This document shows positions 29,326-54,541 of a stretch of 64,000 nucleotides of DNA, piece by piece. A program made the position numbers and the translations under genes. The notes below the pieces were generated by a model. The model did not search any database. It worked only from the letters and a program-made list of their open reading frames with translations, and was not told where the DNA came from. The number at the start of each line of letters is the position of its first letter. The first letter of the stretch is position 1. The stretch is from an uncultured Gemmatimonadales bacterium (lineage in GTDB: Bacteria > Gemmatimonadota > Gemmatimonadetes > Gemmatimonadales > GWC2-71-9), in the NCBI GenBank assembly GCA_963779755.1, contig CAVZZO010000003.1:1696001-1760000 (forward strand), written 5' to 3'.

Positions 29326-29420
29326 ACGGTGAGCGGTGAGCGGGTCCACGCGATTCGCTCCGGGCTCGGGCCGCTTAGCTTACCGCTTACCGCTTACCGC
29401 TTACCGCTTACCGCTTACCG
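29320..29420. repeat. Inverted CGGT(A/G)AG / CTTACCG heptamer arms between convergent genes
   Basis: cggtaaacggtgagcggtgagcgg ... (cttaccg) x about 6; both TAA stops lie in the arms. Confidence 0.9.
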
Positions 29421-30287
29421 TACTGAAGCTATCCCCGGCTGCGTCGCTGCCCGCCTCGCCTCCGCCTCCAACCGATCGGTCTCCGCCTCGCGTCGGGCCC
29501 ACTGGAAGAATACCACCGCGATCGCCGCCCCCATGTAGAGGCCCCCGGGCACCCACATCAGCAGCCCGCCCCACTGCTGGTCCTGCAGCGCGGTGAGCCC
29601 CCAGGTGCGCGGCGCTTCGGCGTAGAAGTGATAGAGCACCGTGTCGGCCAGGGTGATGGGCGCGGCCACCGCCTGCATGGGAATCCCCACCAGGAAGAGG
29701 TAGAGCATGCGCAGGCCGTAGGGCAGCGGCGGCACCTCGGGCGAGCGGCTCATCACGGGCCACCACATGAGCACCGCCGTCCCCATGAACATCAGGTGGG
29801 ACACGATGTGCATGTCGTGGTTGGTCATCATCACCCCGTAGAGGGCCGGGACGTGCCAGGCCACCAGCACCAGGGCGAAGAGCAGGCCCGCCGCCACCGG
29901 ATGGGTCAGCACCCGGGCAACCAGCCGGACGCGGGGGCGCCGGAAGAAGGGGGTGAGCAGCCAGCCGGGGAGCCCGGCCAGCAGCAACGGCGGCCAGACC
30001 AGCTGCAGCAGCAGGTGTTGCAGCATGTGGGCACTGAAGAGGTAGCCGTCGCTCAGATCGTGCAGCGGTCCGTTCAACACGCCCAGCAGCACCAGCAGGG
30101 ACAGGCAGAAGGACGCGACCCGCCAGGGAGACGCGGGCGGCCCCAGGCGGTGGCGCCGGCGCCAGGGGCCGAGGCCGTAGAAGTAGAGGGCCGCCAGGAC
30201 GGCGGCTCCGATCAGTACGGAGGGGTGGAGCGACCAGGCGGCGGTGAAGGGGCCGTCGGGGACCGGCTGGTGCAGCAGAAACAACAC
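29415..30287 (-). CDS. ctaG: caa3-type cytochrome c oxidase assembly factor CtaG
   Basis: LFSAHMLQHLLL, WHVP, DQQWGGLLMW. Confidence 0.9.
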   Translation of the reverse strand: MLFLLHQPVPDGPFTAAWSLHPSVLIGAAVLAALYFYGLGPWRRRHRLGPPASPWRVASFCLSLLVLLGVLNGPLHDLSDGYLFSAHMLQHLLLQLVWPPLLLAGLPGWLLTPFFRRPRVRLVARVLTHPVAAGLLFALVLVAWHVPALYGVMMTNHDMHIVSHLMFMGTAVLMWWPVMSRSPEVPPLPYGLRMLYLFLVGIPMQAVAAPITLADTVLYHFYAEAPRTWGLTALQDQQWGGLLMWVPGGLYMGAAIAVVFFQWARREAETDRLEAEARRAATQPGIASVR

Positions 30288-30297
30288 CGGCGGAGCC

Positions 30298-30618
30298 TCA
30301 GGACGGCAACTGCATCAGGTGCGCCACGCTGAAGAGCGCGATCAGCGCCACGATGATGGTCGCCGCGATGATGATGGGAAACACGAACAGCCCGCTGAAC
30401 AGCTTCGAATCCTGCTTCAGGTGCATGTAGTAGCCCGCCACCAGGGCGAATTTGACCGCCATCAGCACCAGCAGGATGGGTACGAGGTAGTGGCGGACGG
30501 ACTCGACGTAGTAGACCGCGACTTCCAGGGCGGTCAGGATGACCAGGGTGACCGCGACCTTGGTGTAGGTACCCGGGGTCGGGTGGGCGTGCTCGTGGGT
30601 AGTTGCGTGCGCTTCCAT
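30298..30618 (-). CDS. Cytochrome c oxidase subunit IV family protein
   Basis: LTALEV, KFALVAGYYMHLK; 3 TM segments; start ATG 30618. Confidence 0.88.
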   Translation of the reverse strand: MEAHATTHEHAHPTPGTYTKVAVTLVILTALEVAVYYVESVRHYLVPILLVLMAVKFALVAGYYMHLKQDSKLFSGLFVFPIIIAATIIVALIALFSVAHLMQLPS

Positions 30619-30629
30619 GGCCCCGGTCC

Positions 30630-31262
30630 TCATTTGATCAGATAGATGACGGTGAAGATCACGATCCAGATCACGTCCACGAAGTGCCAGTAGAGCGCGG
30701 CGATCTCCAGGTTGAGCGCCTTCTCCGGCGGCAGCTTGCCCCGGATGGCCGTCACCAGCACCGTCCCCAGCCAGATGAGCCCCACGGTGACGTGGCCGCC
30801 GTGGAAGCCGGTGAGGGTGAAGAAGGTGGTGCCGAAGACGTTGCGCTGGAGCGTGAGCCCCTCGTGCACGAAGCTGGTAAACTCGTAGACCTGGCCGCCC
30901 AGGAAGATCAGCCCGCCCAGCATGGTGAGCGACAGCCAGCCGATCAGCATCCGCCGATTGCCGCGCTGCGCCCCGTAGAGGGCCAGCACCACCGCAAAGG
31001 AGCTCATCAGCAGCACGAAGGTGCTGATGGAGGTGAAGGGGATGTTGAGAATCGCCTTGTAATGCTCGCCCGTGGTCGGGTCCACCCAGGGGGTATGGGG
31101 GAACGGCCCGACCACGCTCCGCCCCTTGTAGACCATATAGGCGGAGATGAGCGAGGCGAAGAACATGCACTCCGAGCCGATGAAGGTCCAGATGGCCAGC
31201 TTGCGGCTGTCCAGGCCGGTGGTCGTCTCGTGCGTCATCGTGGTCGCGGCAGCGTGAGCCAC
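30630..31262 (-). CDS. ctaE: Cytochrome c oxidase subunit III
   Basis: FIGSECMFF, TGFHGGHV, YWHFVD. Confidence 0.95.
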   Translation of the reverse strand: MAHAAATTMTHETTTGLDSRKLAIWTFIGSECMFFASLISAYMVYKGRSVVGPFPHTPWVDPTTGEHYKAILNIPFTSISTFVLLMSSFAVVLALYGAQRGNRRMLIGWLSLTMLGGLIFLGGQVYEFTSFVHEGLTLQRNVFGTTFFTLTGFHGGHVTVGLIWLGTVLVTAIRGKLPPEKALNLEIAALYWHFVDVIWIVIFTVIYLIK

Positions 31263-31285
31263 TGTGGCGTGTCCTCGGGTTGAGA

Positions 31286-33121
31286 TCAGCCCGCCGGCTC
31301 GAAGGCCCAGCGGAAGATGCCGGTAAACAGGATGATCGCACCGGCGATATTGACCACGAAATTCGTGATGGTGTACGGATGGTGCACCATGAAGCCGGTG
31401 AGCAGCGTCGCCACGCCGACCGCCGCTACCAGCGGCCAGTACGACGGGTTAGGCATGTGGATGCCCGCGCCGCTCACCCGGGCCGGCTCGGGGAGCATCC
31501 CGCCCTTTTGCCGCTTCTCTTCCCAGAGCGGATCACGCGAGGTGACCGACGGGATGGCGGCGAAGTTGAATTCCTGCGGCGGCGAGGGAATGGACCACTC
31601 GAGGGTGGCGCCGTTCCAGGGGTCGGCCGGGGCGGCGGGGCCGCGGCGGCTCTTCCAGATATTATAGATGAACACCAGCTGCGACAGCGCCAGGATGAAG
31701 GCGCCGATGGTCTCCATCTGGTTCCAGAACTCGAAGCCCAGCCCGGCGGGGTAGGTGTAGACCCGCCGGGGCATGCCGTTGAGCCCCAGGAAGTGCATGG
31801 GGAAGAAGGTCAGGTTGAACCCGATCAGCATGAGCCAGAAGTGCAGCTTGCCGAGCCCTTCGTTCAGCATCTTGCCGAACATCTTGGGGAACCAGTAGTA
31901 GGCCCCGCCGGTGAGGGCAAAGATAGCGCCGCCGAACAGCACGTAGTGGAAGTGCGCCACCACGAAATAGGTGTCGGTCTGCTGCAGGTCGGCCGGGGGG
32001 GTGGCGTGCATCACGCCGGAGAGCCCGCCGATGATGAACATGGCGATGAATCCCAGCGCAAAGTACAGCGGCGTCTTCATCTGGAGCGAGCCGCCCCAGA
32101 GGGTCCCGATCCAGTTGAAGATCTTCACTCCCGTGGGCACCGCGATCAGCATGGTGCTGACGGCGAAGACCGAATCGGCGATCGGCCCCATGCCGGTGGC
32201 GAACATGTGGTGGGCCCAGACCCCAAACCCGAGAAAGGCGATGAACGCGCCGGAGAAGACCATGGCCGCGTAGCCGAACAGCGGCTTGCGCGAGAAGACC
32301 GGGAGAATCTCCGAAACGATGCCGAAACTGGGCAGGATCAGGATGTACACCTCGGGATGGCCGAAGATCCAGAAGAGGTGCTGCCACAGAATGGGATCGC
32401 CCCCGTTCGCCACCAGGAAGAAGTTCGTGCCGAACGTCCGGTCGAGCATCAGCATGATCAGCGCGACGGTGATCACCGGGAAAGCCAGCAGCAGCAGAAT
32501 CTGGGTGATGAAGCTCATCCAGGTGAAGATGGGCATGCGCATGAGCTTCATGCCGGGGCCGCGCAGGTTCACGATGGTGGTAAAGAAGTTCACCGCCGCC
32601 GCCAGCGAGGCCACGCCGAGGATCTGCAGGCCAATCACCCAGAAGTCCACATTGGGACCGGGTGAAAACGGCCGCTCGGTCAGGTTGGCGTAGCCGAACC
32701 AGCCGGTGTTGGGCGCCGCGTTGAGCAGGAAGCTGAAGTTGAGAAACAGCCCGCCCAGAATGAAGACCCAGTAGCTGAAGGCGTTGAGCCGGGGGAAGGC
32801 CACGTCCCGCGCCCCGATCTGCAACGGGATCATGTAGTTGAAATACATGGCCGACAACGGCATCACGGCGAGAAAGATCATCGTGGTGCCGTGCATCGTG
32901 AACAACTGGTTGTAGGTATCGGGAGAGAGAAACGTGTTTTCCGGCGCCCCCAGCTGGATGCGCACCAGCAGCGCTTCGATGCCCCCGATCAGGAAGAACA
33001 CGAACGCCGAGACCCCGTACAGGATGCCGATGCGCTTGTGGTCGACCGTGGTAATCCAGCTCCAGAGCCCGGTCGGATGGGCGTGTGCGTGGGCGTGCTG
33101 CTCCAGGACCGTGGTTGCCAT
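31286..33121 (-). CDS. ctaD: Cytochrome c oxidase subunit I, canonical A1 type
   Basis: GHPEVY, WAHH, HFH, PTGVK (K-channel Lys), ARD..FPRLN. Confidence 0.97.
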   Translation of the reverse strand: MATTVLEQHAHAHAHPTGLWSWITTVDHKRIGILYGVSAFVFFLIGGIEALLVRIQLGAPENTFLSPDTYNQLFTMHGTTMIFLAVMPLSAMYFNYMIPLQIGARDVAFPRLNAFSYWVFILGGLFLNFSFLLNAAPNTGWFGYANLTERPFSPGPNVDFWVIGLQILGVASLAAAVNFFTTIVNLRGPGMKLMRMPIFTWMSFITQILLLLAFPVITVALIMLMLDRTFGTNFFLVANGGDPILWQHLFWIFGHPEVYILILPSFGIVSEILPVFSRKPLFGYAAMVFSGAFIAFLGFGVWAHHMFATGMGPIADSVFAVSTMLIAVPTGVKIFNWIGTLWGGSLQMKTPLYFALGFIAMFIIGGLSGVMHATPPADLQQTDTYFVVAHFHYVLFGGAIFALTGGAYYWFPKMFGKMLNEGLGKLHFWLMLIGFNLTFFPMHFLGLNGMPRRVYTYPAGLGFEFWNQMETIGAFILALSQLVFIYNIWKSRRGPAAPADPWNGATLEWSIPSPPQEFNFAAIPSVTSRDPLWEEKRQKGGMLPEPARVSGAGIHMPNPSYWPLVAAVGVATLLTGFMVHHPYTITNFVVNIAGAIILFTGIFRWAFEPAG

Positions 33122-33185
33122 GCGTCTCGTTCCTCGAACGTGAACTGCGAGTGCCGGGGCCCGCCTGCGGCGGCCCCCCGAGGTC

Positions 33186-34259
33186 CTACTTGTGAGCTTC
33201 CAGGTAGGCCACCAGCGCCTTGACCTCGTCGTCGGTCAGGGGGCGCGGCAGCTTCATCAGCGCGCCGGGCTTCAGCGCCTGCGGGTTGTGCAGCCAGCGC
33301 GAAAGATTCTCCGGTGTGTTTTCCAGCATATCGGCCACGATGTGGGTCCGGCTCCCCACGTGCGAGAGATTCGGCCCCATCATGGCCATCACCCCGGCCG
33401 TGGGCGTGCCCATCATGGCGTGGCACCCGATGCAGCCGGCCGAGAGGAACAGCTCGCCCCCCTTCGCCCGGGTGGCGCTGTCGGCGATGGTCGCCATGAC
33501 GCTGTCGGAGACCTTGCCGTTGTTCACCATGGGCGAGCCGATCTGCTCGTTCTGCACCCAGGTGGCGAAGGAGTCGGGCGAATCCACCTTCACCCGGAAC
33601 GCCATGCGCCCGTGCTCCTCGCCGCAGAATTCGGTGCACTGCCCGGTGTAGGTGCCGGTATCGGGCGAGGTGAACCAGAGCGTATTGAACCGCTTGGGGA
33701 AGACGTCGCGTTTGCCGGCCAGGCGCGGCAGCCAGAAGCTGTGCACCACGTCGGCGGAGGTCATATAGAGGCTGACTTCCTTGCCCGCGGGCACATGCAG
33801 CTCGTTGGCGGTCACGACCTTCAGATCGGGATAGCGGAACTCCCACCACCATTGATGCCCCACCACTTCCACCCGGACGGTGTTCCGGGGCCGCTCGTAG
33901 GTCTGGAAGATGGCGTTGATGGTGGGAACCGCGATGATGGCGAGAATGACGGCGGGAATGATGGTCCACACCACCTCGACGGTGGTGTTGCCGTGCGTCT
34001 GCACCGGCTCGGGGTCGTTATCCCGGCCCCGGAACTTGAAGATGGCAAACAGCAGCGCGCCTTCCACCAGCACGAACACCAGGGCCGCCCACTTGACGGT
34101 GGTGAAGAAGACGCCGTCCAGGATGGACGTAAAGTCGGTCTCGGGTCGCAGCGAGCTCTGCGGGTAATGAGAGGCGCAGGCCGCCACCAGCAGGACGGCG
34201 ACGAGCGGCACCCAGCCCCGGCCAAGGGCCGGTGCGATACTCACCTTCCGGAGGGACAT
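33186..34259 (-). CDS. ctaC: Cytochrome c oxidase subunit II with fused cytochrome c (caa3)
   Basis: Lipobox VAAC; VEVVWT; HSFW; CTEFCGEEHGRM (CuA); CIGCH. Confidence 0.96.
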   Translation of the reverse strand: MSLRKVSIAPALGRGWVPLVAVLLVAACASHYPQSSLRPETDFTSILDGVFFTTVKWAALVFVLVEGALLFAIFKFRGRDNDPEPVQTHGNTTVEVVWTIIPAVILAIIAVPTINAIFQTYERPRNTVRVEVVGHQWWWEFRYPDLKVVTANELHVPAGKEVSLYMTSADVVHSFWLPRLAGKRDVFPKRFNTLWFTSPDTGTYTGQCTEFCGEEHGRMAFRVKVDSPDSFATWVQNEQIGSPMVNNGKVSDSVMATIADSATRAKGGELFLSAGCIGCHAMMGTPTAGVMAMMGPNLSHVGSRTHIVADMLENTPENLSRWLHNPQALKPGALMKLPRPLTDDEVKALVAYLEAHK

Positions 34260-37524: not shown

Positions 37525-37594
37525 GCATCGTGTGCACAATCTCCCGCATTTACGCGGGGTGACGGTACAGAGAAGGTTTCCGCATTCCCGGGGC

Positions 37595-38608
37595 GTGCGC
37601 ATCGCTCCTGCGTGCCGGGTCCCGTTCCTTCCGCTACTGGCCACACTCCTGGTCGCCGGCTGCAACAGCCCAAGCTTCATGCGGCCCGAAGGATCGATGG
37701 CGCGGTCGGAGGCGCACCTCGGCTGGTTGCTGCTGATCATCGCCGCGGCAGTCGAGCTCGTCATCTGTGTGCTGGTTCTGCTCGCCCTGTTCCGCCGCCG
37801 CGACTACGGGCTGGGCCTGTACCGCGGCACCGGCACGGGCGTTCGCTGGATCACCATCGGCGGGGTGCTGGTGCCGGTGATCATCCTGGCAGCGGTCTTC
37901 ATCGTGAATCTGTTCACCCTCAGGGCGGTGGCCACCCCGCCGCCGTCGCCCGATCTGCTCACCATCACGGTGACGGGTCATCAATGGTGGTGGGAGGTGC
38001 AGTATCCGGCGGACGGCCCGGGCGAAGCGTTCGCCACCGCTAACGAGATCCACATCCCGGTGGGCAGGAAGGTGCGGTTCCAGCTGCAGACCGCCGACGT
38101 GATCCACAGTTTCTGGGTCCCGCGGCTGGGCGGCAAGACCGATCTCATACCGGGCCAGCGCAACGTGACGTGGCTGGAGGCCGACAGGGCCGGCGTGTAC
38201 CGGGGGCAGTGCGCCGAATACTGCGGCGCGCAACACGGGCACATGGCCTTCGTGGTGGTGGCGCAGAGCCCGGACGAGTTTGCCGAATGGGAGGCCGGCC
38301 AGCGCCGGCCCGCCGCGGCACCCACCGATCCGGTGGCGCTGCTGGGCCGCCGGGTCTTCGAGAACGGCCCCTGTGTCGTCTGCCACACGATCCGGGGCAC
38401 GGGAGCCCAGGGGACGGTGGGGCCGGACCTGACCCACCTGGCCAGCCGCCGCACCATCGCGGCGGGCACCATTCCGAACACCCGCGGCTACCTGGCCGGC
38501 TGGGTGGCCAATTCCCAGGGCATCAAGCCGGGGAACAAGATGCCGCCGATGGCCCTGGCGCCGCAGGAGCTTCAGGCGGTGATCACGTATCTGCAGAGCC
38601 TGCAATAG
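37595..38608 (+). CDS. coxB: Heme-copper oxidase subunit II with fused cytochrome c (second operon)
   Basis: Lipobox VAGC; HSFW; CAEYCGAQHGHM; CVVCH; start uncertain (ORF is open from 37532). Confidence 0.93.
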   Translation: MRIAPACRVPFLPLLATLLVAGCNSPSFMRPEGSMARSEAHLGWLLLIIAAAVELVICVLVLLALFRRRDYGLGLYRGTGTGVRWITIGGVLVPVIILAAVFIVNLFTLRAVATPPPSPDLLTITVTGHQWWWEVQYPADGPGEAFATANEIHIPVGRKVRFQLQTADVIHSFWVPRLGGKTDLIPGQRNVTWLEADRAGVYRGQCAEYCGAQHGHMAFVVVAQSPDEFAEWEAGQRRPAAAPTDPVALLGRRVFENGPCVVCHTIRGTGAQGTVGPDLTHLASRRTIAAGTIPNTRGYLAGWVANSQGIKPGNKMPPMALAPQELQAVITYLQSLQ

Positions 38609-38618
38609 GGGGAGGGAC

Positions 38619-40514
38619 GTGGCCACATCCATTGCGGCCCCCACCGTAGCCGAGCGACTGGAAGAACTCTGGCGCACCGAACCGGGCCTGGTCGGGGCGC
38701 TCACGACGGTGGACCACAAGAAGATCGGCAAGCGGTACCTGGTGACGGCGCTGCTGTTCCTGGTGCTGGGCGGCTGCGAGGCGCTCATCATGCGGCTGCA
38801 GCTGGCCGGCCCCAACGAGTCGCTGCTCACGCCGGACCAGTACAACCAGCTGTTCAGCATGCACGGCGTGACGATGATCTTCCTCTACGCCTCGCCCATC
38901 CTGAGCGGCTTCGGCAATTACCTCTGGCCCATCGTGGTCGGCGCCCGCGACATGGCGTTCCCCCGGCTCAATGCCTTCAGCTACTGGAACTTCCTCTTCT
39001 CGGGGATCTTCATCTACACCGCGCTGGTGATCGGGCAGGCTCCCAACGACGGGTGGTTCAACTACGTCCCCTTTGCCTCGCTGACGTACAACCCCGGGCT
39101 GAACATGGATTTCTACGCCCTGGGCCTGATCTTTCTCACCATCTCGACCACCGTCGGCGCGATCAACTTCATCGTCACCCTGTTCAAGCTGCGGGCGCCG
39201 GGCATGTCCATCAACCGGCTGCCCATCCTGGTCTGGGGCACCCTCAGTACTTCCTTCGCGATCCTGGCCAGCCTGCCCGCGCTCACCGCCGCCTGCCTGA
39301 TGCTCTATCTCGACCGGCGGTTCGGCATGCATTTCTTCGACGCCAACCAGGGAGGCAGCCCGCTCCTGTGGCAGCATCTGTTCTGGATCTTCGGCCATCC
39401 CTGGGTCTATATCATCGTGCTGCCGGCCATGAGCATCGCCTCGGAGATCACCCAGACGTTCTCCCGGCGGCCGCTGGTGGGCTATGTCTTTCTGGCGCTG
39501 GCCACGGTGGCCACGACCATCCTGGGCTTCGGGGTCTGGGTCCACCACATGTTCGCCACCGGGCTTCCGGCCATCTCGACCACGTTCTTCAGCGCGGCGA
39601 GCTTCATCATCGCGATCCCCAGCGCGGTGACCATTTTTGCGCTGATCGCCACCATCTGGCACGGCAAGCCGGTCTTCCGGACGCCGCTGCTCTTCGTGGC
39701 CGGCTTCATCGTGCTGTTCGTGCTGGGCGGGGTGAGCGGCGTGGCCACGGCGGCGGTGCCGTACGACTGGCAGCTCACCGACACCTATTTCGTGGTGGCG
39801 CACATCCACTATGTGCTGATCGGGATCAATCTCTTTCCCGTGATCGGCGGGCTGTACTACTGGGTGCCCAAGTTCACCGGCCGCATGATGAACGAACGGA
39901 TGGGCCGCTGGAACTTCTGGACCATGTTCATCGGCTTCAATCTCGGCTTCTTCCCCATGCATATCGCCGGGCTGCTGGGGATGCCGCGGCGGATCTACAC
40001 CTACCAGGCCGGCCTGGGCTGGCATGCCGTGAACCTGCTCACGACCCTGGGCGCGTTTCTCTTTGCGTTCGGCGTGCTGATGTTCTTCGTGAACTTCTTC
40101 TACAGCCGGAAGCGCGGCGAACTGGCGGGCGAGAACCCCTGGGACGGCCCGACGCTGGAATGGGCCGTGCCCTCGCCGGTGCCGCCGTACAACTTCGCCG
40201 AGATCCCCACGGTTCACAGCCGGCTGCCGCTGTGGGAGGGCCGGCTGGACGGCACCAGCGGGATCGTGCACGAGCTCCCGCCGCTGGCGGAGGGCCATGA
40301 GACGATCGGCACCACACCGCTGGATGCCGAAAAGCAGCAGATCCTCCACATGCCGGGCGATTCCTGGTGGCCGCTGCTCACCACGCTCGCGATTACGGCC
40401 GTCTTCTACGGGCTGGTCGGCCGGATCTGGTGGCTGGCGATCGCCGCCGGGGCCATCATGCTGCTGTGTACCGCCATGTGGCTCTGGCCCACGCACGTGC
40501 TGGAGGAGGGCTGA
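38619..40514 (+). CDS. ctaD: Heme-copper oxidase subunit I, atypical A-family (GHPWVY)
   Basis: MHG, GHPWVY, WVHH, HIH, MPRR; GGAGG RBS. Confidence 0.95.
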   Translation: MATSIAAPTVAERLEELWRTEPGLVGALTTVDHKKIGKRYLVTALLFLVLGGCEALIMRLQLAGPNESLLTPDQYNQLFSMHGVTMIFLYASPILSGFGNYLWPIVVGARDMAFPRLNAFSYWNFLFSGIFIYTALVIGQAPNDGWFNYVPFASLTYNPGLNMDFYALGLIFLTISTTVGAINFIVTLFKLRAPGMSINRLPILVWGTLSTSFAILASLPALTAACLMLYLDRRFGMHFFDANQGGSPLLWQHLFWIFGHPWVYIIVLPAMSIASEITQTFSRRPLVGYVFLALATVATTILGFGVWVHHMFATGLPAISTTFFSAASFIIAIPSAVTIFALIATIWHGKPVFRTPLLFVAGFIVLFVLGGVSGVATAAVPYDWQLTDTYFVVAHIHYVLIGINLFPVIGGLYYWVPKFTGRMMNERMGRWNFWTMFIGFNLGFFPMHIAGLLGMPRRIYTYQAGLGWHAVNLLTTLGAFLFAFGVLMFFVNFFYSRKRGELAGENPWDGPTLEWAVPSPVPPYNFAEIPTVHSRLPLWEGRLDGTSGIVHELPPLAEGHETIGTTPLDAEKQQILHMPGDSWWPLLTTLAITAVFYGLVGRIWWLAIAAGAIMLLCTAMWLWPTHVLEEG

Positions 40515-40516
40515 CC

Positions 40517-41110
40517 ATGGCGACCGCGCAGGTGTATGATCTTCCCGTCAATGCCGAAGGCCGCCGCAACGTGGGCTTCTGGGGCATGATGCTGTTCATC
40601 AGCACCGAGGCGGCGTTGTTCGCCTTCCTGCTGTTCAGCTACTTCTATCTCGGCTCCAAGGCCCGGGGGCCGTGGCCGCCCGACGGCCCGCCCGACCTGC
40701 GGCTGGTGCTGCCCAACACGTTCATCCTGCTGCTGAGCAGCGCCACCTACTGGTGGGGCGAGCGGGGAATCAAGCTGGGACAGCAGTGGCGCCTCAAGGC
40801 GGGGCTGTTCATCACCTTCCTGCTGGGCGCGGCGTTCCTGGTCATCCAGGGCATCGAGTACAGCAATAAATCGTTCACGCCCGCAAGCCACGCCTACGGG
40901 TCGCTCTTCTTCACCATCACCGGCCTGCACGGCACCCACGTGTTCGTGGGCCTGCTGATGAACGTCTTCGTGCAGCTCCGCGCCTGGGCCGGCCACTTCA
41001 CGAAGGAGCGGCATCTCGCCGTCACCAACGCGGGCTGGTACTGGCACTTCGTGGACCTGGTGTGGATCGCGGTGCTGACCAGCCTCTATCTCTCGCCGAG
41101 GTTCGGATGA
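40517..41110 (+). CDS. Heme-copper oxidase subunit III
   Basis: FISTEAALF, TGLHGTHV, YWHFVD; start ATG 40517. Confidence 0.93.
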   Translation: MATAQVYDLPVNAEGRRNVGFWGMMLFISTEAALFAFLLFSYFYLGSKARGPWPPDGPPDLRLVLPNTFILLLSSATYWWGERGIKLGQQWRLKAGLFITFLLGAAFLVIQGIEYSNKSFTPASHAYGSLFFTITGLHGTHVFVGLLMNVFVQLRAWAGHFTKERHLAVTNAGWYWHFVDLVWIAVLTSLYLSPRFG

Positions 41111-41526
41111 CGGGCGCCGGGGCCATGAGCGCCCCCTACCGTGGCCGTGCCGGCAACGCGGCGCTCTGGTTCGGCGTGTTCGGCGCGCCGGCCGCCTGGA
41201 GTCTCCACACGCTGGTCGACTATCCCCTGGTGACGTACGGCTGCTTCCCCCGGAACGTACTGCTCCAGCATCCCGCCTTCGGCGGACTCCTGCCCCTGGC
41301 ACTGATCATCAGCGGCGTGCTGATCCTTGCCGGCCTGGCCGCCTGGTGGACGGCCTGGGTCTGCTGGCGCCGTACCGACGGCGACTTCGCCGATGCCGAA
41401 GGCGCCAGGGAAGCCATTCAGGGCCGGGTGCGCTTCATGGCGTATGCGGGGCTGCTGCTGAGCGCTGTGTTCACCCTGGGCATGCTGTTTACCACCCTGG
41501 GACTCATCCTGGTCCCGCCCTGCTGA
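41107..41526 (+). CDS. Small 3-TM membrane protein of the oxidase operon
   Basis: APAAWSLH..VDYPL..YGC...RFMA...PPC*; translationally coupled on both sides. Confidence 0.8.
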   Translation: MTGAGAMSAPYRGRAGNAALWFGVFGAPAAWSLHTLVDYPLVTYGCFPRNVLLQHPAFGGLLPLALIISGVLILAGLAAWWTAWVCWRRTDGDFADAEGAREAIQGRVRFMAYAGLLLSAVFTLGMLFTTLGLILVPPC

Positions 41527-42857
41527 TGCCCCGAATCCGTGTCGCCGCGCTCGCCGCCGCACTGCTGGCGCTCCCGGCCCCTCTCTGGGCGCACGGCGGC
41601 CACGCCGAGGCGCTGGCCTGGCAGGCCGATCCGCCGATCGTGATTCTGCTGGCAGCCGGCGCCGCGCTCTACGCCGCCGGGATCGCCCGGTTGTGGCGGG
41701 AGGCCGGCATCGGCACCGGCGTGCCCCGGTGGCGGGCGGCCTGCTTCACCGGCGGCCTGCTTGCGGTGGTGCTGGCGCTCCTGTCGCCGCTCGACGCCCT
41801 GGGCGACCAGCTCTTCGCGGCGCACATGATCCAGCACCTGGTGCTCATCCTGATCGCGGCGCCGCTCCTGGTCCTGGGCGCGCCGGCGCTGGTCCTGCTC
41901 TGGGCGCTGCCCGGCGGGGCCCGGCGGCGCACCGGTGAGTGGTGGCGCACCGGGCCGCTTCTGCCCCGGCTCATCCGGGTGCTCACCCGCCCGGCGGCGG
42001 CCTGGGGCCTGGCCGTCGGTGCCCTGCTCTTCTGGCACATGCCGGGACCGTTCCAGGCCGCGCTCGGCAGCGACACGGTGCACGCGGCGGAACATCTCAG
42101 CTTTCTGGGGACCGCCGCGCTGTTCTGGTGGGTGGTGCTGCAGCCGGTGGGCCGCCGGCAGCTGGGCCACGGCGGCGCCATCCTCTACGTCTTCACCGCG
42201 GGCCTGGTAAGCAGCGGCCTCGGCGCCCTGCTCACCTTCGCCGTCCGGCCCTGGTACCCGCTGCAGACCGGCGGCTTCGCCCGCTTCGGACTCACACCGC
42301 TGGAGGACCAGCAGGTGGCGGGGCTCGTCATGTGGATTCCCGCGGGCCTGATCTACCTGGGAGCGGCGGCCTGGCTGTTCGTCGCATGGCTCCGCGCCGA
42401 CGAGCGGGCCGACGAGCGGCGCGAACGGAGTTTCCATCCTGCATTGGGGGAACGGATGACCCAGCAGCAACGACCCCGCAGCCGCGCGGTGGTCCTGGCC
42501 TGGGCCGCGCTGGCGCTCGCCGGCCTCGGCACCAGCAGCTGCGGCCATGAGATTCATGCCGCGCGATCGGTTGAGGGCGGCGATCCCGCGATGGGCAAGG
42601 CGCTCATCGTCTCCTACGGCTGCGGGGCCTGCCACGTCATCCCGGGCGTGGACAATGCCCACGGCATGGTGGGCCCGCCGCTCACCCATTTCGGCCAGCG
42701 GGTGTATATCGCCGGCGAGGTGGCCAACACGCCGCAGTATCTGATCCGCTGGATCACCGTGCCACAGGCCATCGAGCCGGGCACCGCCATGCCCAACCTG
42801 GGCGTGACCGATGCCCAGGCGCGGGATATCGCGGCCTACCTCTATACCCTGCAATGA
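41526..42857 (+). CDS. CtaG assembly factor fused to a c-type cytochrome
   Basis: LFAAHMIQHL and DQQVAGLVMW, then in frame CGACH...GPPL...PGTAMP. Confidence 0.88.
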   Translation: MPRIRVAALAAALLALPAPLWAHGGHAEALAWQADPPIVILLAAGAALYAAGIARLWREAGIGTGVPRWRAACFTGGLLAVVLALLSPLDALGDQLFAAHMIQHLVLILIAAPLLVLGAPALVLLWALPGGARRRTGEWWRTGPLLPRLIRVLTRPAAAWGLAVGALLFWHMPGPFQAALGSDTVHAAEHLSFLGTAALFWWVVLQPVGRRQLGHGGAILYVFTAGLVSSGLGALLTFAVRPWYPLQTGGFARFGLTPLEDQQVAGLVMWIPAGLIYLGAAAWLFVAWLRADERADERRERSFHPALGERMTQQQRPRSRAVVLAWAALALAGLGTSSCGHEIHAARSVEGGDPAMGKALIVSYGCGACHVIPGVDNAHGMVGPPLTHFGQRVYIAGEVANTPQYLIRWITVPQAIEPGTAMPNLGVTDAQARDIAAYLYTLQ

Positions 42858-43564
42858 GGAAGCGCTTCGCCGCCGCCTTCCTGGCCCTGGCCCTGGCCCT
42901 GGCTCCCGCCGGGCTATGGGCGCAGTTCGATTCGCTGTCGCTGCAGAGCGCCGTCGATTCCGCCCCCCTCAAGGTCAATGAGGAGGGCCAAGCGGCCCGG
43001 CTGCCGCCCCTGCCCGCGGGAATGACGCTGGATATGATCCGGCGGGGTGACTCCCTGTTCCACGGGCCGGGAGGATGTTTCGTCTGTCACGGGGTGGAAG
43101 CCGAGAGCCGCCCGGGCGCGGGCGATGCCCTGACCACGGCGCTCACCTACGTGCCCTACCGCTGGGATTCCATCGACAGCCTCATCAATCACGGCATTCC
43201 GGACGATATCACCCGCAGCGGGCTTTCGATGCCGGCGCGGGGCGCCCGGTCCAATCTCGATTCCCTGCAGGTGCGCGAGGTTTCGGCCTACGTCTGGGCC
43301 ATCAGCCAGACCCGGGGCGAGCCCTGGCCCGGCGGGCATGCGAGCCATTTCGCCATGGTGCCGGTTGGGGCCAGCAGCGGCACCGACGCGGCCTATGCCG
43401 GGGGCGGCGCGGCCAACCCCGGGCAGCCCGGCACCGGCACGTCCAGCACCGGGGCCGGCCGCCAGGCGATGGCAATCACCTGGTCGCTGGTGGGGGTGTC
43501 GCTGCTGGTACTGCTGGTGATCAATTTCGAGGTGATCAAACCGAGACGGAGTCGTAAGACGTGA
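42854..43564 (+). CDS. Membrane-anchored monoheme c-type cytochrome
   Basis: Signal peptide; CFVCH; SMPARG axial Met; C-terminal TM helix. Confidence 0.85.
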   Translation: MRKRFAAAFLALALALAPAGLWAQFDSLSLQSAVDSAPLKVNEEGQAARLPPLPAGMTLDMIRRGDSLFHGPGGCFVCHGVEAESRPGAGDALTTALTYVPYRWDSIDSLINHGIPDDITRSGLSMPARGARSNLDSLQVREVSAYVWAISQTRGEPWPGGHASHFAMVPVGASSGTDAAYAGGGAANPGQPGTGTSSTGAGRQAMAITWSLVGVSLLVLLVINFEVIKPRRSRKT

Positions 43565-44080: not shown

Positions 44081-45640
44081 TCAGGTGCCCACCGACCGCA
44101 GCTGTACCGGCTCCTGCTCCTCGCTGCTCTTCAGGTAGGCGGTGGGATCGTGCATCAGCGCGCCCTCGGGGAGATGCTGATAGAGAGGTCCCAGCTCCTT
44201 TTCGATCCGCTGGCGGTAGAACTCCGGCAGATCCGTCGTCTCGCCCTCAAAGAAGTCCCGGACCGAGCGGTCGGTATCCAGCAGGCGCCGCATCATGGTG
44301 TGATAGCGGATCCGGCCAAAGCCCTCCGACGACACCGCGCGCACGAAATTCATCCACTTGGGGATGGCCGTGGCGGTGGCGGGAATGCGCCGGGCGATGG
44401 CTCGCCAGGAGAAGGAATGGCGGCTCACCTGCACCACGGCGTCGTAGAATTCCGTCCAACTGTAGTTCAGCGGCCGGACGTTCATCGCGTGGTTGTTGTT
44501 CAGGAAATGGAAGGGGAATGGCAGCACCCGCCCGGCCCGCTGGTAGTCGAGATTGAGCGGGGCGGCCCGCCCGAAGGCCGACAGCAGCGAATAGGCCGGG
44601 AAGGCGCCGGGCGAGAGCTCGATGAACTTCTGCGTCAGCTCGAACGGCTCCGGCCCATCGTCGGTGTCCATCCCCAGCACGAAATTGGTCTGGATGTAGG
44701 GGATGTACCGCAGGATCATGTTGACGTGGTCGGACACCTGGCGGACCTTGTCCATGCCCGTGCGCCGGGTCTTGGATTTGTTCCCCAGGTCGTACCACGA
44801 TTCGATCCCCGGCAGGATGGCGCGGAAGCCGTTGTCGCGCAGCCGCTGCAAGTGCGGCTCCGACAGGAGCGACAGGCTGCTCTCGGCAATGTGGCGCATA
44901 CGCCCGCGCGGCACGGCCGCCTCGATGGCGTCCATGTAGTCGTTGAAGCGGACTCCGAAATTCGGATCGTGCCAGCCGACAATCGGGTTGCGAAACTTCG
45001 TCAGCAGGAACTTGAGGTCGGCGCTCATCTGCGCGAAGCTGAGCGGCTGGTATTCCACCGTGGAATCGATGCAGAAACAGCAGGTGTAGGGGCACCCCAG
45101 GCTGCCGATCATCGGGACGATCTTGATGGTAGGCGCCTTGGCCAGGGTGGCCTCGACGAACTTCCAGCGCCGCTGCAGCGTGGGGAGCTCCACCGGCTGC
45201 CGCGGCGCCGAGATCTGGACGCCCATGGGGCGGTGCGGCTCGCAGTCGCGCAGCAACTCGTCAATCGCGTTCCGGTCGGTGAAGCCCAGGACATAGTCGA
45301 AATATTTCTGAGCGTCTTCGGGGTAGCACCGCGCGTGCGGCCCGCCGATGGCGGTCACCGCCCCCCGGCTGCGATACAGATTGCTGAGCGAATAGGCCAA
45401 CTGGGCCGACTGGGTAAAAGCGCCAATGAACAACAGATCGAGATCGGCGGGCAGCTCCCGCCCCAGATCTTCGATCCCGGTATAGCACACCAGCGTGACG
45501 TCGTGCCCCAGCTCCTCGCACCAGACGGCGACGACCTGCGGCATGATGCTGGCAAGATTGGCGTTCATGATACGCCCGTACAGCGATGGGCGGGGACTCT
45601 TGGTCACCAGGTCTAGAATGCCGATGCGGAGCCTGCGCAC
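44081..45640 (-). CDS. Radical SAM protein with a B12-binding-like N-terminal domain
   Basis: IGGPH, GCPYTCCFC (CxxxCxxC), DPNFG, GIES, FVLGMD; start GTG about 45640. Confidence 0.9.
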   Translation of the reverse strand: MRRLRIGILDLVTKSPRPSLYGRIMNANLASIMPQVVAVWCEELGHDVTLVCYTGIEDLGRELPADLDLLFIGAFTQSAQLAYSLSNLYRSRGAVTAIGGPHARCYPEDAQKYFDYVLGFTDRNAIDELLRDCEPHRPMGVQISAPRQPVELPTLQRRWKFVEATLAKAPTIKIVPMIGSLGCPYTCCFCIDSTVEYQPLSFAQMSADLKFLLTKFRNPIVGWHDPNFGVRFNDYMDAIEAAVPRGRMRHIAESSLSLLSEPHLQRLRDNGFRAILPGIESWYDLGNKSKTRRTGMDKVRQVSDHVNMILRYIPYIQTNFVLGMDTDDGPEPFELTQKFIELSPGAFPAYSLLSAFGRAAPLNLDYQRAGRVLPFPFHFLNNNHAMNVRPLNYSWTEFYDAVVQVSRHSFSWRAIARRIPATATAIPKWMNFVRAVSSEGFGRIRYHTMMRRLLDTDRSVRDFFEGETTDLPEFYRQRIEKELGPLYQHLPEGALMHDPTAYLKSSEEQEPVQLRSVGT

Positions 45641-46018
45641 AGAGAAGCACCTCGCGATGGGGAAAACCCCGCGCAACCTGCCGGGGTTTCAGTACGATGG
45701 ACACGGTCAGGCAATTGGCCCACGAATGCGCGGACGCCGTTCCGTTGGCGTTTCCTGTCCGTTGGGGCGAAACAAGGGGGTCCCACCGCCGGGCGGCGGC
45801 TCATTCTGACCCGATAAGGCGCGGATCGTCCTCCAGCGAAGCCCGCGAAATACCTGCAGGACCGTTTCGCGGTGTAGGGATATTCACCCCCACGTCCCCG
45901 GTCTGTCAACAACCCACGTCACATCCGGCCCCGGGGGGCCGGTCTAGCCTGTCCTTCTCGCAGGTCAGATTTTCATGGAAGCAGGCCGCCGGAGCCTCAG
46001 CGAGAGGGCGGGCGCGAG

Positions 46019-47964: not shown

Positions 47965-48077
47965 AGGTATGCCCCGTTCTTGAAGTTATGCGGACAACGG
48001 CCCCGGCGCCCCGATGCGCCTCCGGGAAATCCGGGCTATTATGGATCGGGCTGTCTCCATCCGGTCTCCGGCGAACG

Positions 48078-48683
48078 ATGCCTCACTCCACCTCCCCATC
48101 CGTCAGTCACCTGCTCCGGGAGCTGCGGGCGGGGAACCGCGCTGCATTCGACGAGCTCCTTCCGCTGGTCTATGACGAGCTGCACCGGCTGGCCAGCCGC
48201 CAGCGGCGCCGGTGGGAGGGCGACGAGACGCTCGACACCACCGCCCTGGTCCATGAAGCCTATCTCAAGCTGGCCGGCCAATCGGCCCCCGAATGGCAGA
48301 ACCGTGCCCATTTCCTGAGCGTGGCCGCGACCGCCATGCGGCAGATCCTCATCGACTACGCCAAGCGGAAGTGCGCCGCCAAACGCGGCGGCCAGCGGCC
48401 GCATGTGCCCCTGCACGAGCTCGAGTCCGTCCTGCTCCAGATGGAGCCCTCGTCCGAAGTCTGTGACGAGATCCTGGTCGCGCTCGACGAGTCGCTTCGC
48501 CGTCTGGAGCGGAGCAACCCGCGGCAGATGCGGATTGTCGAGTGCCGGTTCTTCGGCGGCATGTCCGTCGAAGACACCGCCGAGGCGCTCGGCGTATCGC
48601 CCGCGACCGTGAAGCGCGGCTGGGGAATGGCCCAGGCGTGGCTATATCGCGACCTCAAACAGACGGTTGAGGGCGCCCGGTGA
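48078..48683 (+). CDS. ECF sigma factor of the kinase-associated (TIGR02999-like) type
   Basis: LPLVYDELHRLA, TLDTTALVHEAYLKL, MRQILIDYA, VECRFFGG. Confidence 0.92.
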   Translation: MPHSTSPSVSHLLRELRAGNRAAFDELLPLVYDELHRLASRQRRRWEGDETLDTTALVHEAYLKLAGQSAPEWQNRAHFLSVAATAMRQILIDYAKRKCAAKRGGQRPHVPLHELESVLLQMEPSSEVCDEILVALDESLRRLERSNPRQMRIVECRFFGGMSVEDTAEALGVSPATVKRGWGMAQAWLYRDLKQTVEGAR

Positions 48684-51600
48684 CCGAACGGGAAGTGGGA
48701 CCCGGGGAGCGGGCCAACCCCGAGCGGCTGGAGGAGCTCTATGAGAGGGCCCGCGAACTGGGTCCCGAAGCCCGAGCCGCGTTCCTGAGCGAAGCCTGCG
48801 GCGGCGACTCCCGGCTGGAGCGGGAGTTGAGTTCGCTGCTGGCGCACGGAGAAACGGGCGAAGCGTTCTTCGCGGGTCTGGCGGAGGTCATCGTTTCGCC
48901 TGCCGTAGGGCACCAGGTTGGCCGCTACCGCCTGATCGGGATCCTGGGAACGGGAGGTATGGGAACGGTCTACCGGGCCCATGACACCCGGCTCGACCGG
49001 GTGGTGGCTCTGAAGTTCCTCCCCTCGTATCTGAGTGCGCAACCGGAAGCCCGGGAGCGGTTCCTGGTAGAGGCGCGTGCCGCGGCGGCCCTGGACCACC
49101 CCAACGTCTGCAGCATTCATGAGATCGGCGAGACCGCAGACGGCCGGCCCTTCATCGCCATGGCCTGTTACGAAGGCGAAACACTCAAGGAGCGGCTGAG
49201 CCGGGGACCCCTGCCGCCGGCGGAAGCGGTACGAATTGCGCTCCAGCTGGCTCGCGGCCTGGGGGCGGCGCATGACCGAGGGATAATTCACCGGGATGTG
49301 AAGCCCGGAAACGTGGTGCTCCCGGCCGACGGCATGGTCCGCTTGCTCGATTTCGGATTGGCCAAGGTGTCGGACGTCAGCATCACCGGCCCCGGCGTCA
49401 CTCCAGGAACAATCGCGTATATGTCGCCCGAGCAGGCGCGGGGCGATCCGGTGGATCCCCGGACCGATCTCTGGAGTCTGGGCGTCGTCCTCTACGAGAT
49501 GCTCACCGGGACCCGTCCGTTCCGGGGCGGGAATGACCGGGTCGTAATCCAGGCGATCTTTCATGAATCTCCGGATCCGCTGCACAAACGAATGCGCGGC
49601 GGCCCCTCCTCCTTGGCGCGGACGGTGGAGCGCCTGCTGCAAAAGGCGCCGGAGGACCGCTATCAAAGCGCGGACGAACTGGCGCGCGATCTGGCCGGGG
49701 GTACTTCCGCCGGCCGCATGGCGGCGGTGCGCGATTGGACGCGGAAGCACACCCGAACGGTTGCGGTAGCCGGGGCGGGGCTCATCGGCGTCATCGCACT
49801 GCTCTCTCTGGGATGGCTCGCCCACCGGCCCGGAAATCTGACCGCTGCTCCCGATTTGAACTCCTCAACTCCCACCATCGCCGTCTTGCCCTTTACCGTG
49901 CGCGGGCCGGGGCTCGAGGTCTGGCACGAGGGCATGGTGGATCTCCTCTCGATGGGACTCGACGGGGCGGCCGGGATCCGGACAGTCAACAGCCGTACCC
50001 TCCTGGCGAGGTGGCATCAGGAGGTCGGGGACCGGGCTCATTCCGATCTCCCGCTGGCCCTGGGCGTCGCCCGCCGCACCGGGGCGCGGTACGCGCTGGT
50101 CGGCTCGGCGGTCGCCGCAGGGGGGCAGATCCGGCTGGGCGCGCAACTCTACGAGGTCGGGAGCGGCCGGGTGTTGGGGCCGGTCCAGGTCGAGGGACCT
50201 GCCGACTCGGTGCTGTCCCTGGTAGACCGCCTGGGAGTGCAGACCCTGGGCCTCATTCCGGAAAAGGATCCTGGCGAGGTTCCTGCGCTCAACCTGGCCA
50301 GTATGACTACCAGTTCACTCGTTGCGCTCAAGGCGTATCTCCAGGGCGAGGATCATTATCGCCGTTCCGAGAACCGCGAGGCCGCCGAGGCCTGGGAGCA
50401 GGCGGTGCGCGCCGATACCCTGTTCGCGCTGGCCTACCTGGGTCTCGCCGATGCCTACGCCTGGCTGGCCAATTATACCAACGCGCTCCGCATGCGGTTT
50501 GTGGAATCGCTGGAGCATGCCAAGGCGATGGAGCAACGCCTCCCCGGCCGTGAGCGGACCACGATGGAGATCCGCTGGGAGCGGCTGACCGGGGTGCGGG
50601 CGGTGGTTCCCACGATCCGGGAGGCTCTCCGGAAATATCCGGATGCCGCCGATATCTGGTATGAGCTGGGCGAGGCCTATCTGCATGATGCGGTGGCAAT
50701 GAGTGGCCCGGAGCAGGCCGAGGAGGCCTTCCGGAAAGCGGCCGGGCTCCAGCCCACCATGGCGCCATACCGTATGCACCTACTCGACTTGGCGTTCAAC
50801 TGGCACGCCGATAGCGCGCAGGTTGCGCGGGAGCTCGAAGCCGATGCCCGGCTTGCCCCCGACGCCCCCAGGACCCGGGGTGGCCGGATCGCATTTGCGC
50901 TGGCCTTCGGTGACAGCGGCGCCCGCGCCCGCGCCCGCGCCGAGGTCCTCACGCTGGATAGCGAATCCGCGGCACAGGTGTATTTCTTCCTCGCCCACCC
51001 GAGGTTTGCCCAACTGCGCGACGCGGTCTACCGGACCATCCTCCCGCGTCTGGACGAAAGCGACCGAATGGCAGTTCAGGAGACGCGCTTCAGGGTCCTC
51101 GGCCTCATGGACGGACGCGTTCACGACGCCCTCGCGACACTGGATGAGCCCGGGACTCCTGGCTTTCTGCGCTACGTCGGCCCCCTCTACCTCTCCATGC
51201 GGGGTATGCCCGTACCGGAAGAACTTCTGAAGCGGACGCTCGCCGCCGCGCGGAAAGACAGTTCCCTCTTCTCGACCCGGACCGCGGCGATGTTTGCTGC
51301 CGGGACGGCCGCCCGCCTGGGCGATTGGAGCGGATACAACGACCTGGTTTCCCGCATGCGTGAACTCGCCGCGCGGGGCCGGGCTGCCGGCGACACGGCG
51401 AGCGCCGGGTATTGGGACTGGGCCGTCCAGGGAACGGAGGCGCATGGGCTGTGGCGACAGGGCCGGAAGGAGGAGGCCCTGCAGGCATTCGAGAGCACCC
51501 TTCCATTCGGTCAGGGTTGGTTCACGCTCTGGAACGTCGGACAGCTTTCGCTCGAGCTCGGCCGCCTGGATCAGGCGGAGCGCGCCTTCCGGGCGCTCTG

Positions 51601-54363: not shown

Positions 54364-54541
54364 ATCCACCTCCGGGGCTGAAGGGAACAGGGGAGGTAAC
54401 ATAGGCGGGAAGTCGGGAAGGCGGAAAGTACTCCGAGCCTGGGGCCGGGCCGCTTCGGCTGGGCGACACCCGGGAAGCGGCCGTCTATGGCGCCCGGCGG
54501 TCCCGATTCCTAGCTTCAGGGGATACCCTGGAGGACGACGC

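Follow-up and report, generated by a model that had tools for sequence, protein, structure and literature searches.

Within the 64-kb window analysed here, which is the whole stretch of 64,000 nucleotides from an uncultured Gemmatimonadales bacterium, one operon encodes a heme-copper oxidase whose subunit I (P0001, 631 amino acids (aa)) has a Trp in place of the helix VI Glu and a Thr in place of the helix VIII Lys of the canonical A1 enzymes of the A family. We call this oxidase and its relatives W-type. The W-type oxidase is a real, conserved, widespread and selectively maintained A-family variant that possesses all redox centers of an O2 reductase. Judged from its sequence, it is most likely an O2-reducing oxidase of the caa3 type with altered, probably lower, proton coupling. 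A paralogous A1 operon lies 4 kb away.

P0001 is translated from an uninterrupted frame, and the DNA at positions 39390-39410 (ttc ggc cat ccc tgg gtc tat) encodes FGHPWVY, with no Tyr-Ser pair before the His (IFGHPW). P0001 and the paralogous subunit I share 47% identity, and BLASTP places FGHPWVY over FGHPEVY and IPSAVT over VPTGVK. Glu and Lys occupy the same columns in the solved chains of M. tuberculosis aa3 (8hcr_F) and B. subtilis aa3-600 (6koc_A); matches of P0001 to solved chains have E-values of 1e-105 to 1e-142. R. sphaeroides positions were mapped onto P0001 through motifs, and we take the positions of W262 and T338 to be those of R. sphaeroides E286 and K362. All six metal-ligand His residues (H82, H260, H309, H310, H395 and H397) are present, as are the cross-link Tyr (Y264) and the Arg pair R457/R458. 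The D-channel entrance comprises D111 and N118 (ARDMAFPRLN), N100 (GFGNY), N183 (AINF) and S176. The first-pass annotation had described intact ligands, a retained lower D-channel and the loss of both signature residues with no Tyr-Ser substitute, and each of these observations holds. The paralog is also the canonical A1 control that it was proposed to be, keeping FGHPEVY, VPTGVK and the subunit II Glu.

Profile and structure comparisons place P0001 in the A family. It matches PF00115 (503.7 bits, cut-off 34.8) and TIGR02891 (693.2 bits, cut-off 670.75). Its AlphaFold2 (AF2) model has a mean pLDDT of 94.9, and its top Foldseek matches are A-family chains with template modelling (TM) scores of 0.75-0.89, the closest structure being 2yev_A (TM 0.88). 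The closest solved match to the W-type subunit II is 2yev_B (2.7e-45). This subunit scores 185 bits against the CoxB model TIGR02866 (cut-off 147.7), and CuA and heme motifs are visible in it (HSFWVP...CAEYCGAQHGHM and CVVCH). The Cytochrom_C domain on subunit II and the CtaG match (PF09678) are those of a caa3-type enzyme, and CxxCH is found in 71 of 72 subunit II open reading frames (ORFs) at related loci. Subunit II has a Thr (...VRWITIGG...) aligned with the Glu in the second transmembrane helix of both P. denitrificans and window A1 subunit II.

The enzyme had been suggested to be neither A1 nor A2, and helix VI indeed fits neither XGHPEV nor YSHPXV, the motifs that define the two subtypes (PMC8780969). 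FGHPWVY departs from the A1 motif, with Trp across the clade described below, and Phe-Gly at 258-259 departs from the A2 motif (Phe in 191 of 199 clade rows; Gly in 187 and Ala in 12). The K-channel pair of A1 and A2 enzymes is missing as well, P0001 having T338, with Lys in 0/199 rows and the Glu motif in 0/67 paired subunit II proteins. The protein is not of the B family either. It is nested in the A family, keeps the D-channel entrance and has a partner that lacks the subunit II Glu.

The substitutions are the property of a clade. In a set of 121 proteins, which comprises the query, P0002 as the database entry of the same protein and another 119 matches at 64-72% identity, GHPWVY occurs in 120 and Lys at the helix VIII site in none. 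A scan of one genome per species gave at least 592 matching stretches, and the best 80 formed our locus set. They are spread over Gemmatimonadota, Alpha-, Beta- and Gammaproteobacteria, with a single Bryobacterales metagenome-assembled genome, at 56-71% identity. Cultured strains are among the carriers, such as Aurantimonas manganoxydans SI85-9A1, A. coralicida DSM 14790, Caenimonas terrae KACC 13365 and Microvirga sp. 2TAF3. All 80 loci encode [GA]HPWVY; the first-pass annotation had allowed that close homologs might retain the Glu and the Lys, and they do not. In an alignment of 199 clade rows, W262 is present in 198, and the lone Glu row is a second, A1-type ORF of one locus (L080) whose matched gene reads FGHPWVYA. 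Site 338 is Ala in 143 rows, Ser in 27, Gly in 17 and Thr in seven, never Lys; Gln is found there in three loci. The metal ligands, Y264 and R457/R458 are conserved in 197-199 of the 199 rows.

The operon is conserved along with the residues. Relatives of coxII occur in 79 of the 80 loci, of coxIII in all 80 (directly after coxI), of the small ORF in 53 (by tblastn) and of ctaG in 79, some of the latter matched through the cytochrome c part alone. The cytochrome c encoded at 42854-43564 has relatives in two of the 80 loci and is thus not a conserved member of the clade. We also sampled 200 further genomes of the phylum, four of which are flagged as unpublished and enter the denominator alone. 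Counted by identity, 13 of the sampled genomes match at 57% or more, and all 13 encode a further A-family subunit I.

The phylogeny was computed with FastTree (LG, 502 columns) and rooted on the B-like enzyme of the genome. Representatives were the 150 best matches out of 1.84 billion sequences searched; 112 rows covering at least 90% of the core were kept and 40 of 152 dropped. To these we added 22 locus proteins drawn at random, five more proteins of the clade and two other oxidases from the genome. The Trp clade is monophyletic with a support of 0.98, or 1.00 if a basal FGHSWFY member is included. A small WGHPEVY group, in which helix VIII has Ser or Gln, is sister to it (support 0.89). Both are nested (support 1.00) in a large clade that retains the helix VI Glu and has Gln for the Lys, referred to here as Gln-type. 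The Gln-type clade is in turn sister to the A1 group that holds the window's paralog (support 0.80), and the YSHP (A2) groups lie far from the Trp clade.

Loss of the Lys and loss of the subunit II Glu invariably coincide. We paired each coxI with its adjacent subunit II gene, including 79 metagenome loci recovered with a Gln-type query. Among 129 pairs, 67 have Trp, no Lys and no subunit II Glu, 41 have Glu or Asp, Gln and no subunit II Glu, and 21 have Glu, Lys and the subunit II Glu. The co-occurrence of the Glu-to-Trp change, Lys loss and subunit II Glu loss, raised as a question by the first-pass annotation, is without exception. Because the Trp clade is nested in the Gln-type clade, we conclude that Lys was replaced by Gln first, Glu by Trp next and Gln by a small residue last. 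The W-type enzymes would have arisen from A1-like ancestors that exchanged the K-channel Lys for Gln and lost the entrance Glu of subunit II; the D-channel Glu would later have become Trp, and the Gln would have become Ala, Ser, Gly or Thr.

The Gln-type clade (loci L093-L135, representatives P0124-P0145) has peculiarities of its own. Many members are fused I+III proteins of ~840 aa. Extra Glu residues occur at columns 96 (82%), 174 (88%) and 183 (76%). The Glu at 183 replaces a conserved Asn, and Asn is also lost at columns 100 and 118. From these residues, the clade looks like a separate, uncharacterised D-channel solution.

The channels of the W-type enzymes are altered in a consistent manner. 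At the D-channel entrance, D111, N118 and N183 are each conserved in 198 of the 199 rows, N100 in 195 and S176 in 194. Among Gln-type relatives these columns have become Ile/Val (N100), Ser/Gly (N118) and, in 76%, Glu (N183), so structure alone does not account for their conservation in the Trp clade. Since the entrance is retained, we take protons to still enter there. Helices II and IV carry residues specific to the clade when compared with A1 and mostly also with Gln-type enzymes, namely Y90, S96, S99 and T178. Column 90 is Tyr in 178 and Phe in 17 of 199 rows, and among the 152 representatives Tyr occurs there only together with W262. Column 92, Met in 70% of A1 representatives, is Ser, Ala, Leu or Gly in the Trp clade; going by known structures, it presumably faces the lost Glu.

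Along the former K route, helix VII has T296 (199/199) and T299 (198/199), the latter at a column that is Ile in 50 of 50 A1 representatives. At its cytoplasmic end, helix VI has D/E276 (189/199) beside S275. In helix X, I403 (196/199) and N404 (198/199) replace the small residues of A1 enzymes. The basal member P0151 already has Y90, T296 and T299; D276 and N404 arise later. By the AF2 helix limits, T299 and residue 338 are each 10 residues from the cytoplasmic (N-side) helix ends, and W262 and N404 are each 14 residues from the periplasmic (P-side) ends. The B-like subunit I of this genome has the same Ser/Thr at helix VIII columns 335/338 as P0001. Those residues that may touch W262 or line a water path were assigned from helix depth, periodicity and known structures.

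The Trp clade also has Thr at both columns 377 and 387, and T377 is characteristic of it. Column 387 is His in 72% of A1 representatives, which we take to be a ligand of the Mg/Mn site. Loss of this His as a distinguishing feature is weakened by the window's A1 paralog group, which also has Thr, Gln or Asn at 387, with His at 377.

These data qualify the first-pass annotation's statement that the key residues of both channels are missing. The Glu and the Lys are gone, but the D-channel entrance is strongly conserved, and residues with hydroxyl or acidic groups that are specific to the clade appear to line both routes. We read this as proton delivery that has probably been rewired rather than as dead channels.

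The gene neighborhood points to a role in alcohol oxidation. A tblastn census with the pyrroloquinoline quinone (PQQ) domain alone over the 80 loci identified an XoxF-like PQQ dehydrogenase (PF01011) in 68, on the same strand in 67 of these and on the opposite strand in L040. The gene follows the small ORF in 48 loci and lies 1.8-3.1 kb upstream of coxI in 20. Identity to the query is at least 52% in 66 loci and 34-37% in two. All four linked dehydrogenases that were examined have a DYD motif, which we take to mark lanthanide-type XoxF enzymes. At 79 Gln-type/A1 loci, whose flanks are shorter (mean 7.2 kb), there are five weak PQQ matches at 25-28% identity. In most genomes, the W-type operon would thus encode the dedicated oxidase of an XoxF-type (lanthanide) PQQ alcohol/methanol dehydrogenase.

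This arrangement resembles published gene clusters. Voutsinos 2024 (PMC10875860) lists CoxII, CoxI, CoxIII, a hypothetical protein of ~110-130 aa, CtaG and CytC as neighbors of xoxF3 in Acidobacteria and Gemmatimonadetes, and cites a 2014 mini-review (Keltjens et al.) for cox/ctaG in xoxF3 operons. That gene set is the conserved W-type operon, and the window has the same series (CoxII-CoxI-CoxIII, small protein, CtaG, cytochrome c). It differs in that no adjacent xoxF is present, and the search found no PQQ dehydrogenase match within the 64-kb window. The closest XoxF-like gene of the genome (G000:C3:1394302-1397330; L172:6303-9331) is on the same contig, ~340 kb from the operon. It is 52-53% identical to the oxidase-linked dehydrogenases and is followed by a cytochrome c gene. 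In the text of PMC10875860 on the xoxF3-cox clusters, proton-channel residues are not mentioned.

Our preferred model, to which we assign a probability of about 0.55, is that of a functional O2-reducing caa3-type oxidase in a distinct A sub-clade, with a rewired cytoplasmic proton supply and with pumping reduced or lost. Electrons would be delivered by a periplasmic c-type cytochrome, which is probably the partner of XoxF in most carriers, and would pass to the subunit II cytochrome c, then to CuA, the low-spin heme and the heme-CuB center with its His-Tyr. Protons would still be drawn from the cytoplasmic side. The retained D-channel entrance (D111, N100, N118, N183 and S176) would be more hydroxyl-rich than that of A1 enzymes, with S96, S99, T177, T178 and Y90, and the D route would end at a cavity plugged by Trp, with a smaller residue opposite. 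S275, D/E276, T296, T299, S328, S335 and the small residue at 338 may line the former K route and form a Lys-free path of water and hydroxyls similar to that of the B family, with the new acidic D/E276 at its mouth. Relative to A1 enzymes, pumping would be reduced or lost, because the branch point has no evident protonatable group and is filled by Trp. The W-type enzyme is always an extra oxidase, which fits a specialised role with relaxed coupling. Single-channel B- and C-family enzymes are reported to pump about half as much as A-family enzymes (PMC11214002), and the B-family K-path, the sole channel of these enzymes, is built of polar residues (PMC8780969).

Several points weigh against this model. 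Replacing the helix VI Glu in A1 enzymes abolishes activity, and a Trp at this site might block proton delivery altogether. Retention of full pumping would account just as well for the strongly conserved D-channel entrance. The presence of Phe in 17 of 199 members indicates that Y90 is not an indispensable proton carrier and weakens its candidacy as an essential replacement for the Glu. The electron donor in this organism is a guess, the window having no PQQ dehydrogenase, and 12 of the 80 loci likewise have none, some owing to their short length. A further reading holds that these enzymes constitute an 'A3' type and thereby a third natural way of ending the D-channel in the A family, in which Trp has replaced the Glu and a carboxylate-free network of Tyr, Ser, Thr, Asn and water operates with a Lys-free K route. 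This would be a convergent, B-like, low- or non-pumping oxidase within the A family, private to lanthanide methanol dehydrogenases. We consider it a tentative proposal that may well be wrong.

The conservation of the D-channel can also be explained by a fully coupled pump of a third A subtype, in which this channel carries all pumped and some chemical protons and Y90 with Ser, Thr and water is the most obvious stand-in for the Glu. The entrance is 97-99% conserved here and has drifted in the Gln-type relatives, and hydroxyls have been added in the channel helices (S96, S99, T178). Y90 arises with W262, being present in the basal P0151 and absent from the Glu-bearing sister group, and the Tyr-Ser pair of A2 enzymes is a precedent for replacing the Glu (PMC8780969). 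We nevertheless regard full coupling as unlikely. Trp cannot carry a proton, the Y90 column tolerates Phe, and the loss of the K-route Lys and of the subunit II Glu means that the protons of the reductive phase would need a new route. The opposite extreme is a non-electrogenic electron sink that takes its substrate protons from the periplasm, as in cNOR, and burns electrons from periplasmic PQQ dehydrogenases for detoxification or redox balance, with no energy conserved. In its favor are the loss of the subunit II Glu together with the two signature channel residues, the altered region aligned with the Mg-site His (Thr at 377 and 387), the invariable presence of another A-family enzyme (13/13 genomes, and five heme-copper oxidase subunit I genes here) and the very low XoxF3 expression in Methylocella silvestris (PMC9291206). 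It is hard to reconcile with D111, N100, N118 and N183, which are kept in 195-198 of 199 rows and have little reason to be so if protons do not enter from the cytoplasm, and with the gain of the acidic D/E276 at the cytoplasmic end of helix VI. We therefore consider a sink improbable, and more so than a third-subtype pump.

The first-pass annotation had also entertained chemistry other than respiratory O2 reduction, such as NO reduction. O2 reductases have given rise to new nitric oxide reductase (NOR) families on repeated occasions, and some NO reduction is carried out by A-, B- and C-family oxidases (PMC11214002). However, O2 reductases require the cross-linked Tyr, and the NOR families described in the same source lack it and have changed active-site ligands. 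The W-type enzymes invariably have Y264, the three CuB His ligands, CuA and the cytochrome c domain, and the neighbors are alcohol dehydrogenase genes, not denitrification genes. We conclude that a different chemistry is very unlikely. A last explanation is private decay, an inactive paralog or a sequencing error, for which one could argue that the canonical paralog 4 kb away makes the W-type copy dispensable. The open frame, the same substitutions in 80/80 loci of several phyla at 56-71% identity, the invariant ligands and the conserved operon rule this out for practical purposes.

The W-type enzymes share most of their architecture with A1 aa3/caa3 oxidases, as represented by the window's paralog, 8hcr_F, P. 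denitrificans 1ar1 and R. sphaeroides 1m56. Common features are the fold with its 12-helix core, the six His, the cross-link Tyr, the Arg pair, CuA, subunit III, the caa3-type CtaG and the Asp/Asn of the D-channel entrance. The differences are concentrated in the channels: Trp for the helix VI Glu, Thr here and Ala, Ser, Gly or Thr in the clade for the helix VIII Lys, no subunit II Glu, T299 for an invariant A1 Ile, and I403/N404 for small A1 residues. A2 caa3 enzymes (Thermus thermophilus 2yev; Rhodothermus marinus) are likewise A-family oxidases without the Glu and with a cytochrome c fused to subunit II. They have the Tyr-Ser of YSHPXV in its stead and keep the Lys, and all rows that combine Ala and Lys at the two sites read YSHPAVY, whereas the W clade has FGHPWVY and no Lys. 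B-family ba3 enzymes resemble the W clade in having no carboxylate at the A1 Glu position and a Lys-free K-route of Ser, Thr, Tyr and water (PMC8780969). The W clade differs from them in lying inside the A family, in keeping the D-channel entrance and subunit III and in lacking the entry Glu of their subunit II.

Modified K-channels have been described before in the A family. In the rus-operon oxidases of Acidithiobacillus and others (Degli Esposti 2021, PMC8239418), a non-ionisable residue takes the place of the Lys, and subunit II has a replacement for its Glu too. These oxidases belong to other lineages and are mostly A2; the supplementary table contains none of the Gln or Trp type, and according to the authors there is no significant change of the D-channel in their set. 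The Gln-type clade, which encloses the W clade, has likewise lost the Lys and the Glu of subunit II (41/41 pairs). It differs in its helix VI Glu/Asp, in a D channel remodelled with extra Glu residues (96, 174 and 183) and in having no XoxF-like neighbor. Both the xoxF3-cox link and, for other A-family lineages, the loss of the K-channel pair have been published before. For a Trp at the helix VI Glu position with its accompanying channel substitutions, we found no description in the open text of PubMed Central (PMC) and bioRxiv, where the accounts of the helix VI motif that we found concern A1 and A2 enzymes.

The window has a G+C content of ~69% and contains two cytochrome c oxidase operons, the canonical one on the minus strand and the W-type one on the plus strand (Table 1). 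The W-type operon is intact, and its genes nearly abut or overlap at their stops and starts.

Table 1. Features of the two oxidase operons, with positions given in the window.
Feature	Position	Strand	Evidence or remark
W-type coxII (subunit II, C-terminal cytochrome c domain, caa3 type)	37532..38608	+	Pfam COX2 83 bits, Cytochrom_C 47.4 bits
W-type coxI (P0001, 631 aa, 12 core and two C-terminal helices)	38619..40514	+	PF00115, TIGR02891
W262 codon TGG, at the A1 Glu position	39402..39404	+	Translation, BLASTP alignment, DNA read-out
T338 codon ACC, at the K-channel Lys position	39630..39632	+	Translation, BLASTP alignment
W-type coxIII, short (197 aa), five-helix type	40517..41110	+	PF00510 117 bits
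Small membrane protein (139 aa) between coxIII and ctaG	41107..41526	+	Start overlaps coxIII stop
ctaG (caa3-type assembly factor) fused to C-terminal cytochrome c domain	41526..42857	+	PF09678 205 bits, Cytochrom_C 31.7 bits
Membrane-anchored cytochrome c (236 aa)	42854..43564	+	Weak Cytochrom_C and Cytochrome_CBB3 matches; start overlaps ctaG stop
Canonical A1 caa3 operon, paralogous	29415..34259	-	FGHPEVY and VPTGVK in subunit I
A1 paralog coxII-cytochrome c	33186-34259	-	Glu kept in ...TTVEVVWT...
A1 paralog coxI	31286-33121	-	
A1 paralog coxIII/IV region	30298-31341	-	
A1 paralog ctaG	29415-30287	-	Without cytochrome c domain

Several genes of the operon have additional features. The N-terminus of subunit II (37532-37690, plus strand) has the look of a lipoprotein signal with a lipobox Cys (LLATLLVAGC), and the true start of coxII may lie downstream of 37532. 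The 139-aa membrane protein has no Pfam or NCBIfam match and may be an unrecognised fourth subunit of the oxidase. The W-type CtaG carries a cytochrome c domain, unlike that of the paralogous operon. Downstream of the operon, a 531-aa ORF on the minus strand (44081-45676) has a sub-threshold radical SAM match (23.6 bits, cut-off 29.5) and relatives in none of the 80 related loci. A gene for an ECF (extracytoplasmic function) sigma factor (PF07638) lies immediately before that of a 1034-aa Ser/Thr kinase with tetratricopeptide (TPR) repeats (47988-51784, plus strand), and two further Ser/Thr kinase genes are nearby (54251-56716 and 62672-64000, both plus strand).

Counting the two in the window, there are five heme-copper oxidase subunit I genes in this genome. 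A third A-type protein has FGHPEVY, while its Lys site is occupied by Ala (IPATIATL; G000:C1:750241-751677, L003), and another protein is B-like (TGHAIVY; G000:C3:1469881-1471230, L004). The fifth (L005) is more distant.

No two residues of the respiratory proton pump have been studied more than the helix VI Glu and the helix VIII Lys, and mutating either cripples model enzymes. A large natural clade that has dispensed with both and with the subunit II Glu, while keeping the redox centers and the D-channel entrance, represents an evolutionary experiment on which parts of the machinery are truly indispensable and how coupling efficiency gets traded away. Since cultured carriers exist, measurement of the H+/e- ratio and a structure are feasible. 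The variant is invisible in genome surveys, where it is named plain 'cytochrome c oxidase subunit I' because it passes the TIGR02891 threshold. The clade also matters for the energetics of methanol oxidation with lanthanides in soils: should the dedicated oxidase have weaker pumping or none, current assumptions would overestimate the ATP yield of XoxF3-based methylotrophy.

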